DNA of 64,000 bases. Origin: Escherichia coli (GTDB lineage: Bacteria > Pseudomonadota > Gammaproteobacteria > Enterobacterales > Enterobacteriaceae). Of this stretch, positions 45,501 through 51,500 are shown piece after piece. The stretch is taken from the NCBI RefSeq assembly GCF_017348835.2, contig NZ_CP071375.1, one strand, 5' to 3'. The position numbers were made by a program. The stretch's first letter is position 1; the number at the start of each line of letters is the position of its first letter.

Positions 45501-48500
45501 TCAGTGTAATACGTGAAATTGCTGAAAAGTTAATCAAATTTAACACCAAGAAAAATCAAGGTATTAGGAAGTTGCTCATAGCTAGTATACCAAGTCTTTT
45601 TGCCAGAAATTTTTCTGGATTGTCTACTTGCTAACCACGAGCGGCAAATCCAGTGTTGGTGTGATTTTTGTTTTACGATCGTAAATCAACACCTGATTTT
45701 CTGTTTTATGCCCGCTGAAAATTTGTTTGTCGCGACTGCTGCCTTCGTAATCTGAGATCCCCTTGGCTTTTATGTCGTGAAAATTGCACCCGAACGGAAC
45801 GCCAACTTTTTGCTCGGCTGCGCGTTTAGCCTGATTCCACCAGTTATTCAGCGTTTTAGCTATGACTTTCCCGCCTTTGGTTGTATTGATCACATATTCG
45901 CATGTACAGGAAGATACATTTCGGGCTAACTGGATCGCTGTACGTAATCGCGGTGACCATTCCTTGATTTGTTTGGTGCCGGTTTTGTTTTGCTCAATGT
46001 AGATCCCTTTATCCATAATATCCTGCCATTTCAACTCAAGCACATCACCGAGTCTTGCCGCACAGAGATAGGAAATCTCCATTGCAATGCGTAACTGTGG
46101 AATTGCTTCCGCATATATCGCCGCATACTGTTCATCGGTGATGTAAACAGTGCGGGCTTTAAGAGAGAATTTTCTGACTCCTTTGCATGGGTTATTCTTC
46201 ACATACCCACGCTCATATCCCCACCCGTATACTCGACTCAGGCTTGCCAGTTCATGATTTGCCTGGGTCTTGCTCTCAAGCCCTCGTTTATCCATGAAAA
46301 TTCTTACCTGCTCAGTTTTGACATTATCAGCAAGCACTTTTCCGAATACCATCAGCAACGCCTTCTGATGTTGTCGATAATCTTTTTGGGTTCGGGGGGC
46401 CAGTTCTGTAAATGCAGGGGAGTCCATAAACATGTGCCACAATTTAGCTACGGTCATTATGTTGTGGAGTTTTGCTTTTTCCAGTTCATAATTTTGCCAG
46501 ACTTTAGCTACGCTGGTTTTCCGCACTCTTCCTAGCCCTATACTTCTTGTACTTCCTTCGGGTTTCCACACGTAACTGTAACCATTCGATCTAACCCGCG
46601 GTGGCAGTACATTATCTTTTTTATTTTTTCTTGGTCTTCCCATTGTTCAGCGCCTCAAAATCGGGTTCAGCAGAAACCAGTTCAGATGTTTTTGGCATCG
46701 TTGTCAGACCGTGTGGAATATCCCTGCGGAGAACTATGGGTTCGTTTTTAGGGCCGATTACAAATGGGATGCCGTGCAGTCTTAACTGGTGTTGCTGTTT
46801 TGTGTATCGCTCGTATTTCGTGATCTCTTTAATCTCTGCTGGAGATAGAGTTAATTCGTACATGTGGTCACGTGCCTTTACAGCATGACCGCCGCCACTA
46901 TAGCTGGTGGGCGGCGATATGGGTTGAACATCAAAAATCAGCCTGACTCGGGAGCAGTTTTTGCCAGATGGCTGAAACGTATTTCGCCTGGTAACGTGCA
47001 TCGTTCAGAGCGTTATGGCGTTCACCTTCGAATGGAATAGTCGTTCTTGCGTCGAAATCCATCACCAGTCCCAGAGCAACCATCGTTCTTACATCGCGAT
47101 CATTGGTGTAACGCCATGGGCAGGGGATCCCCTGCCGTTCATATGAACGGCGTAAAATCACGTTGTCGAAAGTTGCACCGTTACCCCAGACCTGAACAAA
47201 AAATTCACCGGAGTTTTCGTCGATAAATTCCCGTAATTGCAGCAGTGCATCATCTAACGGGATTTCATCGGTAAGAATGGCGGATTGCGCTTCGCGTGAC
47301 TGTTTCAGCCACCACTTAATGGTGTCCCGATCAATGACTCCGCCAGCAGTTTCCAGATCGATAGTTTTGCTGAATTCTGGCCCCATCTCTCCGGTTTGCG
47401 GATCGAAAAATATTGCACCTATTGAGATAATCGGGGCATCAGGATTTTTTCCCATTGTTTCAAGGTCAATCATCAGATGGTGCCACAACCTGCTGGTGGA
47501 TGAGATTTCATGATGACCGTTCACTTTAATTAAGGGATTTGCTGTTTCGCCAGTTTTATTATCGCTGGCGTGATACTGATCGCTGCCAGTGTTCTCCTTG
47601 TGCAGATGTTCAGTGCCTTCCATTTCCTCCGGATCATTTTTCTGAGCTTCAGCCTGATTCTCTTCATCGAATGTTTCCAGGTAGGTTGCGTTCCCCATCA
47701 CCGCACCACAGTCAGGACAGTTGCCGCCACCGGTCTGACCGCATGCGGTGCAAACTTTTTCCAGTTCCTGTTGCACTGCTGGTTCTGGTTGTTGTTCTTC
47801 TGGCCCGTTTTGTTGCGTATCCGGGCTGTTTTGTTCCGCTTCTGGCTCATTTTGTTTCACGTTGGGCTGATTCTGGTCCTCAGCGTCGCGACTCTGGATC
47901 CCTTTCACCCATTTCGGATCATTCGGGTCGCTAATCCCTTCAACAAATTCACCACGTGATGCAGCAAGCAATTTATCGGCGTCAGGCTGGCTGATATTGG
48001 CTGCCTGCATAATTTTGTTTACTTCGTCAGCGGTAACTTTTACCGGCTCTGATTGTTCGGAATCTTCAGCGGTATCCACATTTTGCGGTAAGCCCGTGTA
48101 TGTGCCATTTTTTCGGGCAAAATATTCTTCTTTTGAGATTTCGGTACCGCCGGCAGCCAGCGCCTTGTCCAGACCAGAAAGTTTGTTTGCCCTGCCGTAT
48201 TTTTCCCCGCCCTTATCGGTAAAGACGAAATAAAATGGTCCTTCACGCTCTACAGATGGTTCAGCTTCCACTAGGATTTCATTTTTTTGAGTATCGGATT
48301 CTGCCGTCTCCACTGGAGCAGTTTGTGCTGCTGACGGCTGGAGAGCATCAGTAGAGCTCTGGTCTGTTTCTTCATGTTCAAACACGCCCTTTGTCGTCAG
48401 GTATTCACTGATATATTTGTTCAGTGCAACGGGATCTTTGTGAATATCGATCGGACGTTCGCGAACAAGGCCAAAAATAGTCTGACGGTCATAGCCAAGT

Positions 48501-51500
48501 GCTTCGGGCTGTTTGCGCATTGATGCTGAGATACGCTTCCAGTCTTCGCGATCCTTGTCGATAACCTCATTTGTCGCCCAGCGATGGATGGTACCGTCAA
48601 TGTTTCCTGCATCCACATCACCGGGCCAGAGGGCGCAGGCCAGTTCATTGTCGAGTGTTTTCCATGTCTGTTTGTATTCGCGGCGAATGGCAACAGTGAC
48701 AGCCCCGGTTTTTTCAGCAGCGTTTTCAGTGTTCTGTTGGTTGACTCTGGCGCGGGTGAGATCAACAACAGACGTGTATTTTCCGGTTTCCTTGCGTTCA
48801 CCTTCGCGACGTTTTTTCCAGATGCGCATCTCTGCCTGAATTTCAGGCCATTTAGCGCCAGGCTCACATTTATGCTTAACCCACCCGATGGCATGCAGTT
48901 TAAGTTCAGGATACATGGCGTTAACTTCTGGCATTTTCATCAACGCTTCAACGATATGTCCGCCGAATGTTGCCATGTCTTCCTGTAGTAATTCCTGTGC
49001 GCTAATCACCATATCAACGGTGATGTTTTCGCATGTGTCGAATTTAACCAGGACTGCGTTCTGTACTTCAGGGGACAGCTTGTCAAAATTGACGTTCATC
49101 GGATCGGATTCTGGTTCGACCGGTACAAAGGAAGCTGACTCCTCATCCCAGCGGTTTTCCTGCATATATTCGGTATCCCAGGAATCGAGGGCAGGGCGGG
49201 GTATGCCGGGTTTATCCTCGCAGACAATAAATTTATAAGCGCAGTCCTGAGCTGCCGGGAATTGCTCCAGAAATTGCCAGTGAAATTTTGCGCGTGCGCG
49301 ACGCTCATCACCGGCTTCAATGGCAGTGGCCACCGCAACAGCGCTATCTTCTTTTATGGCCTGTTCGTCAGGAATAGCAGCGCAAATAAAGATTTTACTC
49401 ATTGTGTTTTAACCTCATTACAGATTTAAGGGTGAACAAATCCCTGCCATTGCTGGCATATAAAAATGAAACCGGATATTAATTACGGTGCTGTTTTAAA
49501 GTCCTGCCGGTATTTCGTTATTATTAGTGTGAGTAGTTTTATCTACCGGATAACAGTTACCGGGAATTTTTTGTTCTGCTGCTGCAGCCATGCATTCTTT
49601 CATTGAACCGTATAAGCCAGTCACCAGCTCAAGAGATTCGCCGGAAACAAGATAAACTGTCAGAACGAGTGCAAATGTTGTATTCATTGTTTATATCCTT
49701 TTTGCAGCAGGTCCAGACGAGCCAGCATTGAAGGAATGCATACTTCATTTAACAGGTCCTGCTCGAGTTTTCTCTGCTTAATGGCGTCTTCAATAAATGT
49801 TTTGTCTCCAGTGATAACGCCAATTTCGAAACGAAGTTCAGACGTGCTGGCATTACATGATAACTTTTCCATTATCGCGTCCTCAACAATGAATTTTGTG
49901 ATGCGGTGCCTGGTGCCTCCAGGTGACGTTAACCAGTTAACAATTAACGCCGGATACAGAGCATTCTCGTTACTCAGCAAATGACCGCTTTACCGATTTA
50001 ACTGTTCCGCGTGCGCTGAGCCGCATTCACCGCATCACAAAATTCACTTTTAAAAAAGGGCGGCAGAGCAGTCACGGAGTAAAACTGATACCGCCAAATG
50101 TCACCAGAATATTGATAACAGAGGGCGTTGCAGCGGGGTTGTCACTTAAGCGTATGGTCAACCTGACAACCCGGTGTCCTCAACGGGGAAAGAATAACCC
50201 CGCCATACTTACCGCCGCGCCATTTCGCGGATTGCCACAACCGGAAGCGCACGGTCGAATTAAATTTAACGACGGCTCTAAGGGAGAAGGACTTCGCCGT
50301 GCACTTTCGTGTTATGCCCTGACTTTTCAGGGATATATCCTTTCAGTAAACTGTCAGTGCCGGATTCTTATCTGTGTCCGGCGCACGACCACACGTAGCA
50401 GCGTGTTGGTCTCCATTTTTAATTCAGCCCTTAATGGAGGATAAAATGCCAAACAAACCATGCCCTGCCTGTAACGCTCTTTCTGGCTTTTTAGAGAAGG
50501 GCGGTTATTACATTTTTAACTGTCCAGAACATGTTGAATTTCATATATCAAAACTTGACAGTATCATTACAAAGCCAAATCAGTATCAGTCTGATTTACT
50601 GAATAAAGAGTTAAACGCCGCCCGAGATTAAGGGCGTAGTGGCCCATTAAAAATATTGCAAAGACCAACTATTGTTGAACTGGATTAAACCAGTAATTCT
50701 CTATTGCTCTTATTGTTACCATCGGATGATTGCCGGGGGTTATTTTAAGTTCGGGAGGAAAAGGCTCTCCATCAGCAGCCATCATTGAGTATGTGAAATC
50801 CGCCGACGCAGTCCCTTTCATGATAATTCCGAATTTTTCAAGTAATGAGAGCAGTTCCGGTAATCCTGTGTCATCTGAATAACTTTCCTCATAGAAAGAA
50901 GCGATTGCCGCAGGAGATGACAGTTCTCGCTCTGCAATTTTTTTGTAGTTTTCCAGAGTTCTTTTTTTGAATACTTTTCCTCGACATGAAAACCCATCAC
51001 CGAGGCAATCCGCTTTGCAGTTTCTTCAGTATTCTGGTTGTTTGTTACCGAAACAGAGTACAATCCGGTAAACGCATCGCGCACATTACGAGCCATATTA
51101 TCAATGTATTTCTTCGTTGCAGATTCTAATTCAACTTCGTTCAGACGTTGGTGAAGTGCATGTGCTGCAATTTCCTGGATTTCTTTTAGTAAATCTTTAA
51201 ATTCCATCTTTAACTCCGTTAGTCGTTAGATTTTGCCGAACTGGAAAGCGCCTGTTTAAACTCACTGAAGCTGAGAGCTTCCTCGCCTTCGGCAAGGCCT
51301 TTGAACCGCCCCGGGTTTCCTGGAGAGTGTTTTATCTGTGAACTCAGGCTGCCAGATCATTATTTCCGATGGAAGCATAATAAGCTTTTTCTGCTTCTGC
51401 CGGAGGAATATGGCCCAGCCTTTCCAGCAATCGTCGATTGTTATACCAGTCCACCCACGTTAGTGTGGCCAGTTCCACTTCTGCACGGTTTTTCCAGCTC

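Follow-up and report, generated by a model that had tools for sequence, protein, structure and literature searches.

What does a large prophage exonuclease do when it occupies the place of recE and has no recT-like gene beside it? This question is raised by an 823-residue protein encoded at 46931..49402 (minus strand) of a 64,000-nucleotide stretch of Escherichia coli DNA (assembly GCF_017348835.2, contig NZ_CP071375.1), hereafter the window. The gene belongs to a Qin-type lambdoid prophage inserted beside yccA in the E. coli chromosome, and it lies between cell-division inhibitor genes and xis/int, which is the place of recE-recT in Rac. Its product is, with near certainty, a mosaic of a RecE/YdfE scaffold and a DEDDh exonuclease domain of the DexA/Rv2179c family. 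We propose, more tentatively, that the enzyme acts on DNA 3' ends as an accessory to host recombination.

A DEDDh nuclease domain on a scaffold shared with RecE

The gene is a single ATG-to-stop open reading frame (ORF) in the window's ORF list, its coordinates including the stop codon. In E. coli PE164, NCBI/PGAP annotates the same ORF, at the same coordinates, as "exonuclease" (WP_000034468.1), and the 823-residue protein matches phrog_2082 ("exonuclease" in PHROGs) over its full length. An earlier sequence-only reading of this DNA had described a large prophage exonuclease with a C-terminal DnaQ-like 3'-5' domain rather than the RecE fold, preceded by a CxxC...CPDC motif and an acidic low-complexity segment, and had placed the gene where Rac carries recE. 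Each of these elements was recovered, the acidic segment as three separate ones.

The C-terminal residues 636-823 (46931..47497, minus strand) form a predicted DEDDh 3'-5' exonuclease domain of the Rv2179c/DexA family. Residues 641-813 match the Rv2179c-like model PF16473 over its entire length (profile positions 1-177 of 177; E = 6.8e-66; 221.8 bits against a cut-off of 27). This is the sole Pfam domain above threshold in the protein; the general DnaQ-superfamily model PF00929 gives a weak match (E = 0.003). The DEDDh set is complete, with D646 and E648 (MIDLET), D746 (NGATFD), and H796 and D801 (HNALND) aligned with the corresponding residues of DexA. A PDB sequence search with the whole protein returned only the 227-residue exodeoxyribonuclease chains 8kel and 8ken (E = 6e-7), and the DexA protein of T-even phages (227 residues) is about 26-30% identical to the domain. 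The likeness to T4 DexA and the PF16473 family extends over the C-terminal 188 residues of the window protein, with the full-length Pfam match and the D-E-D-H-D set. In contrast to DexA, which is a stand-alone protein of 227 residues, the window domain is fused behind a 635-residue RecE/YdfE scaffold.

Much of that scaffold is homologous to RecE. The sequence-only reading had related the two proteins by position; the positional equivalence stands, and the relation is now refined to one of homology. BLASTP against K-12 RecE aligns residues 262-625 with RecE 278-591 (E = 4e-59), with ~80% identity across residues 473-625 (RecE 440-591), a span that takes in both RGEFVEGISDPNDPKW and the four cysteines. 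The homology ends at residue 625 (RecE 591), and nothing aligns past RecE residue 591. Because the RecE nuclease domain has been placed within residues 564-866, with recombineering constructs beginning at residue 588 (PMC11611040; PMC3945230), this end coincides with the nuclease boundary. The C terminus of RecE alone, together with RecT, was used by De Paepe et al. (2014). On the evidence of these alignments, the window protein is a nuclease-domain swap on a scaffold common to RecE and not merely a positional analogue.

Filing the protein as RecE (exodeoxyribonuclease VIII) was considered and rejected. The window protein has no Pfam match to PF12684, the PD-(D/E)XK nuclease (RecE residues ~600-866) that is matched by K-12 RecE and four RecE-type relatives, and none to the N-terminal model PF06630 (Exonuc_VIII), which K-12 RecE matches at 6e-98. 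The NCBIfam RecE equivalog NF007259 scores 260 bits against a cut-off of 1269, with only profile positions 446-602 matched, and no RecT gene is adjacent. What the two proteins have in common is their place between kil/dicB-type genes and xis/int, a large and mostly acidic N-terminal region, the central-linker feature of RecE (GISDPNDPKW plus CxxC...CPDC), and families that exchange modules by recombination. In contrast, the PD-(D/E)XK nuclease, PF06630, and the adjacent RecT with which Rac RecE works are RecE features absent from the window protein, and the predicted polarity differs as well (3'-5' for the window protein, 5'-3' for RecE).

The N terminus leads to a second relative. Over residues 1-255, the protein shares 89% identity with the K-12 Qin pseudogene ydfE, and homologues 85-100% identical to the window protein carry precomputed matches to PF27430 (YdfE_N) and PF27432 (YdfE_C), from which membership in these two families is taken. 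K-12 ydfE has the same upstream neighbors (DicF, dicB, and ydfD) but is cut by IS2 after about 255 codons, so that the nuclease domain and all else beyond that point are lost. The window carries the intact form of this gene. By sequence, the protein thus belongs to PF16473 and to the YdfE family; it does not belong to the RecE equivalog, three defining features of which it lacks.

Four modules precede the nuclease domain. Module A, the YdfE-type helical N-terminal region (residues 1-260; 48623..49402, minus strand), has AlphaFold2 predicted local distance difference test (pLDDT) scores of 85-92 for residues 100-220. Module B (residues 261-345; 48368..48622, minus strand) is a compact helical domain that aligns to RecE 278-336, with pLDDT scores of 96-98 over residues 240-340; it is the module most widely common to the family and occurs in most long representatives, with N termini of either type. 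Module C (residues 346-465; 48008..48367, minus strand) comprises an acidic disordered linker (pLDDT <50 at residues 348-382) and a small beta-hairpin/helix domain at residues 385-435 (pLDDT 94-97).

Module D (residues 466-635; 47498..48007, minus strand) is the RecE-type linker region. It contains, within a disordered stretch, the short conserved motif RGEFVEGISDPNDPKW (residues 483-498; 47909..47956, minus strand), which is a possible protein-binding motif; its general form, G[IV]SDPxDx[KE]W, is found in 25/56 long family representatives and in K-12 RecE. The motif C551-x2-C554-x7-C562-x2-C565 (47708..47752, minus strand), a putative zinc knuckle predicted with low AlphaFold2 confidence, is kept in K-12 RecE (C517..C531) and in the family member P0131, and is present in only 7/56 long representatives. 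The three acidic segments (residues 340-385, 500-548, and 567-640; 20-26% D+E and 2-7% K+R) are disordered in the AlphaFold2 prediction.

Exchange of nuclease domains within the family

A search with residues 1-640 against 1.84 billion representative proteins (E <= 1e-3) retrieved only 248 matches, which marks the family as narrow. When our own module queries were mapped onto the best 150 of these 248 matches, all four combinations of N terminus and nuclease were found among them. A YdfE-type N terminus is joined to a DEDD domain in the window protein and P0121 and to a RecE-type PD-(D/E)XK nuclease in P0129, P0199, and P0232; a RecE-type N terminus is joined to a DEDD domain in P0131, P0137, P0238, and P0267 and to the RecE-type PD-(D/E)XK nuclease in K-12 RecE and P0224.

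Clustering of the last 170 residues of the long representatives gave four main C-terminal classes, namely class X (15 representatives), the RecE-type nuclease (n = 13), the DEDD domain (n = 9), and a short conserved tail (n = 9). Class X ends in a Rad52-like annealase domain that is seen by structure comparison only; searches of this C terminus against PDB sequences, as a single protein and as a profile, returned no matches. In the proteins with the short tail, class Y (P0125, P0139, P0153, and six others), the scaffold ends in QQLTIAALxGLCANPA, with no recognizable catalytic domain. These may be the "RecE-2" proteins without a nuclease domain that are mentioned in a survey of lambdoid recombination modules (Zheng et al. 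2025; PMC12315714).

The exchange can be followed in the DNA encoding P0131, which lies in a Rac-like prophage and has kilR, ydaE, and sieB as neighbors. Compared with K-12 recE, this gene is 100% identical over its first 1080 nucleotides, 77-96% identical to about nucleotide 1800, and unrelated thereafter; compared with the window gene, it is 71-93% identical from nucleotide 1362 to its end. From this mosaic, the module D linker is therefore the crossover segment for the nuclease swap. In the same prophage, the DEDD domain, a DUF4224 gene, and an integrase replace the RecE nuclease domain, recT, ralR, rcbA, xisR, and intR.

Two further observations concern the DEDD domain. The full-length P0267 (locus L009, 5001-7259) has DLKT for DLET and SFAN for TFDN, a pattern that suggests a catalytically dead variant. 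Phage vB_EcoM-720R4 encodes a stand-alone 190-residue DEDD exonuclease (locus L015, 3998-4570) with 59% identity to the window domain, in a yfdP-yfdQ-HD hydrolase neighborhood; thus, the domain also circulates alone.

Absence of an annealing partner

Genes of the DEDD type were examined in eleven contexts, namely the window prophage (the same as that of PE164), phage Tritos, five metagenome or genome contigs, and four further E. coli genomes, which together represent three types of integrase and three attachment sites. In all of them (11/11), the DEDD-type gene is followed directly by xis/int, with no annealing-protein gene between. The RecE-type nuclease gene is followed by RecT in 2/3 contexts, K-12 Rac and locus L010; at the latter, the next gene encodes a 275-residue RecT (PF03837; E = 2e-36). 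At the third, locus L013, a 271-residue protein occupies the RecT position (7565-8380); it has no Pfam match, matches only phrog_3657 (unknown function), and may be an unrecognized annealing protein. The Rad52-like fusion gene is followed by a Sipho_Gp157 gene.

The sequence-only reading had seen no recT-like gene ahead of xis, had called the recombination partner unclear, and had proposed looking for an annealing protein elsewhere in the prophage. The next genes are indeed the xis-like gene and int. Neither an annealase nor Gam is annotated in the whole ~55-kb PE164 prophage or in the complete 46-kb genome of Tritos, and none of ten poorly annotated prophage proteins was recognized as an annealing protein in a PHROG scan. 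The absence of annealase and anti-RecBCD genes from the PE164 prophage and Tritos is one by annotation and PHROG scan, and unrecognized types are possible. Domain analysis did not place the protein in a well-characterized exonuclease family with a known partner nearby. What had been left as an unclear partner can therefore be put more sharply: with none nearby in any of the contexts, the DEDD form appears to have no phage partner at all.

Chi sites and host recombination

Chi sites are more frequent in these phages than base composition predicts (fewer than one per strand in both Tritos and the PE164 prophage), and most of them share one orientation. Tritos carries 9 on the late-gene strand versus 2 on the other, and the PE164 prophage carries 8 versus 2. 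According to the survey by Zheng et al., RecBCD aids those lambdoid phages that have no Rec module, and these phages carry at least eight Chi sites of a single orientation. The class is delimited there by >=8 Chi sites in the active orientation and <=6 in the other, with no annealase and no anti-RecBCD gene; by these sequence criteria, Tritos and the PE164 prophage both fall in the Chi-rich class without a Rec module.

The same survey reports DnaQ-like 3'-5' nucleases. DnaQ-type nuclease genes are described there as sporadic, located very near int, and not counted as members of Rec modules. The survey differs from the present analysis in that, within the sections consulted, these nucleases are not linked to the RecE scaffold.

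One Chi site, GCTGGTGG (47492..47499, plus strand), lies inside the exonuclease gene at codons 633-636, the junction between linker and nuclease domain. It has the late-gene orientation, and Tritos has a Chi site at the same position. One may speculate that this site helps recombination at the linker/DEDD junction, or its placement may be a coincidence. A second Chi site (46903..46910, plus strand) follows the stop codon of the exonuclease gene, ahead of the xis-like gene.

Selection and prevalence

The exonuclease gene is under purifying selection in all of its modules. Between the window protein and its Tritos orthologue (86% amino acid identity), the ratio of nonsynonymous to synonymous substitution rates (dN/dS) is 0.11 for module A, 0.09 for module B, 0.12 for the DEDD domain, and about 0.3 for the linker modules. 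Tritos is one of several inducible or complete phages that carry the gene at full length.

Among 5426 complete E. coli genomes, 4055 (75%) contain DNA of the DEDD domain, at 7980 places in total and up to seven per genome. This share is more than twice that of RecE nuclease-domain DNA, which was found in 1735 of the same genomes (32%). Thousands of near-identical E. coli entries came up in a protein search, under the name "exonuclease" or "3'-5' exoribonuclease."

Proposed role and alternative explanations

We propose that the DEDDh domain would remove nucleotides one by one from free 3'-OH ends by two-metal chemistry, with DNA as the most likely substrate, as for T4 DexA. The scaffold would bring the enzyme to the same DNA ends, or the same recombination or replication intermediates, as RecE. 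Recombination itself would probably be carried out during lytic growth by host RecBCD-Chi-RecA, because these phages are without an annealase, without a RecBCD inhibitor, and rich in Chi. The role left to the phage enzyme would be an accessory one, the trimming of 3' ends or flaps, and not that of one half of a two-component recombinase. Taken as a combined statement of architecture and mechanism, this reading has in our estimate a probability of roughly 0.5; the mechanism taken alone stands at about one in three.

Several points weigh against this proposal. As stated in PMC12315714, 3'-5' DNA exonucleases generally destroy the 3' tails needed by RecA and tend to inhibit recombination; an accessory role in favor of recombination is therefore not what one would first expect. 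The N-terminal 640 residues have no recognizable fold, as the fold search gave no matches, module A included, and it is for this reason that we only infer their role as a targeting scaffold. An insertion sequence (IS) of the IS3 family at 51344-52557 (minus strand) truncates ydfB and sits between the immunity region and the DicF-dicB-exonuclease operon, where it may reduce, by a polar effect, expression of the exonuclease gene in this prophage. PF16473 takes its name from an exoribonuclease, which makes RNA a possible substrate. In the literature searched, no biochemical or genetic test of the protein was found; a search for "Rv2179c" with "prophage" found nothing, and papers on ydfE merely list the gene.

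The 3'-5' polarity could also be read the other way, as that of an anti-recombination, anti-SOS, or anti-defense enzyme. During lytic growth, such an enzyme would remove 3' single-stranded DNA tails, or single-stranded DNA made by defense systems (reverse-transcriptase products), and so limit RecA loading or disarm a host system. A polarity predicted to be opposite to that of RecE would suit this role, as would the lack of an annealase partner in 11/11 contexts and the usual inhibition of homologous recombination by DnaQ-type 3'-5' exonucleases that is described in PMC12315714. Yet the same scaffold also carries pro-recombination domains (the RecE nuclease and the Rad52-like annealase), and the Chi enrichment suggests that these phages need host recombination to be working, not blocked. 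We regard this role as unlikely.

A prophage defense nuclease of the HREX/EcD type, which would protect the lysogen by degrading the hydroxymethylcytosine (hmC) DNA of incoming T-even phages, has a precedent in EcD, an E. coli DexA homologue reported to digest the hmC DNA of T4 and to protect cells from this phage (Kang et al. 2025; PMC12153337). In the same study, 38% of the DexA homologues of bacteria come from Escherichia, and many of these probably belong to the DEDD-type family, because its domain is present in 75% of complete E. coli genomes. The residues discussed in that study nevertheless speak against the comparison. DexA W152, proposed for hmC recognition, corresponds to Thr in the window protein (CPWRYTNDRD) and to Y, T, C, N, S, or W across the family, and the tetramer-forming D90, which is Ala in EcD, corresponds to Asp (LDDAL versus TIDGI of DexA) in an alignment that is approximate at 26% identity. 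Neither the proposed hmC-recognition residue nor the residue proposed for the dimer state of EcD thus has its counterpart in the window protein.

EcD also starts at the first catalytic motif (MIDTET, as given by the cloning primers), from which it appears to be a short protein lacking the N-terminal scaffold, and its C terminus (...TIPETYD) is different as well. When viral contigs were scanned for exact matches to the 23-nucleotide core of the reverse primer for EcD (HAK9828821.1), none was found, and no fetched protein had the ends of EcD. The window protein, in contrast, has a 640-residue scaffold common to RecE and the annealase fusion, and its gene lies in a repressed early-left operon after dicB/ydfD, not in the position of a lysogen-expressed moron. 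A defensive role of this kind is in our view improbable.

We think it still less probable that the protein is an RNA-directed 3'-5' exoribonuclease whose targets are small RNAs or the transcripts of phage or host. PF16473 owes its name to the Mycobacterium tuberculosis exoribonuclease Rv2179c and many NCBI copies bear the name "3'-5' exoribonuclease," but such product names were transferred from the family name and not from tests. The small RNA DicF is processed from the same operon; against this, the nearest solved relatives are the exodeoxyribonuclease chains 8kel and 8ken, the DNA exonuclease DexA of T-even phages aligns with the domain, and the remainder of the protein is common to the DNA exonuclease RecE and the DNA annealase fusion.

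Decay to a functionless relic of a cryptic prophage, to which the IS insertions and frameshifted terminase of the PE164 prophage and the truncated pseudogene ydfE of K-12 might point, is very improbable and was rejected on dN/dS (about 0.1 in the folded modules), the ORF being intact, all catalytic residues being kept, and full-length copies being present in thousands of genomes and in phages that are inducible or complete.

Operon and prophage context

The 8-kb stretch around the exonuclease gene is 100% identical to E. coli PE164, and the first 18.4 kb of the ~55-kb PE164 prophage correspond to 45560-64000 of the window. The gene is part of a leftward early-left operon with the order DicF, dicB, ydfD-like gene, exonuclease gene, xis-like gene, and int. 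On the upstream side lie the small RNA DicF (50058..50109, minus strand; Rfam RF00039, 77 bits versus a gathering score of 48), the cell-division inhibitor gene dicB (49684..49872, minus strand; PGAP annotation from the identical genome PE164), and the gene for a 63-residue ydfD-like DUF1482 protein (49496..49687, minus strand; ORF list and PGAP). The ydfD-like neighbor is also found upstream in Tritos, in K-12 Qin, and in four other genomes.

Downstream are a DUF4224 excisionase-like gene (46621..46863, minus strand; PGAP annotation), which also follows the DEDD-type gene at loci L005 and L019, and a tyrosine integrase gene at the prophage end (45624..46643, minus strand; ORF list and PGAP annotation). 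A consensus scan for a promoter or terminator of the exonuclease gene's own, such as would serve expression in the lysogen, found no more sites than in shuffled sequence.

The IS3-family element upstream of the operon is one of two copies (IS629/IS1203-like), the other lying at about 60087-61300 (plus strand); each contains an ALIL frameshift pseudoknot (Rfam; 52160-52276 and 60368-60484). A sok antitoxin RNA (61489-61655, plus strand; Rfam, 102 bits) adjoins hokD, and a RelE/ParE-family toxin gene lies at about 53094-53381 (minus strand) in the prophage early region; both are ordinary Qin-type cargo.

At the integrase end, the 3' half of serT (tRNA-Ser) is present at 45423-45480 (minus strand), its 5' half replaced by phage DNA. 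Across the whole window ARAGORN detected no tRNA, and the PGAP annotation of the identical genome has none at the serT remnant. At its far end, the PE164 prophage borders on the yodB/zinT region and not on the remainder of serT. Together, the remnant and this junction suggest a rearrangement between prophages.

Significance

As an entity, the protein is already cataloged (phrog_2082; Pfam YdfE_N/YdfE_C and Rv2179c-like; NCBI "exonuclease"), and DnaQ-type nucleases near int have already been noted in the 2025 survey (PMC12315714). The gene is an ordinary, very common, annotated one; it is not a new kind of system and overturns nothing. The present analysis adds the exact position of the swap junction, a four-way modularity that extends to the Rad52-like fusion, the lack of a phage partner throughout, and the Chi test.

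A broader reading, which we consider possible though doubtful, is that the RecE/YdfE N terminus is a common targeting platform to which lambdoid phages join exchangeable recombination effectors: nucleases of 5'-3' or 3'-5' polarity or a Rad52-like annealase, with some proteins carrying no effector. The DEDD form, which is the most frequent of these in E. coli, would then represent an annealase-independent strategy, its 3'-5' exonuclease cooperating with host RecBCD-Chi-RecA. If this were true, the unexplained N-terminal 600 residues of RecE would gain a function that is testable across four fusion partners. Working out the role of the DEDD form would also provide a natural handle on that N-terminal region of RecE, which is widely used in recombineering. 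It would likewise bear on how recombinase-free phages use host RecBCD and Chi, and it would reveal what stands in for Red or RecET in the majority of E. coli lambdoid prophages.

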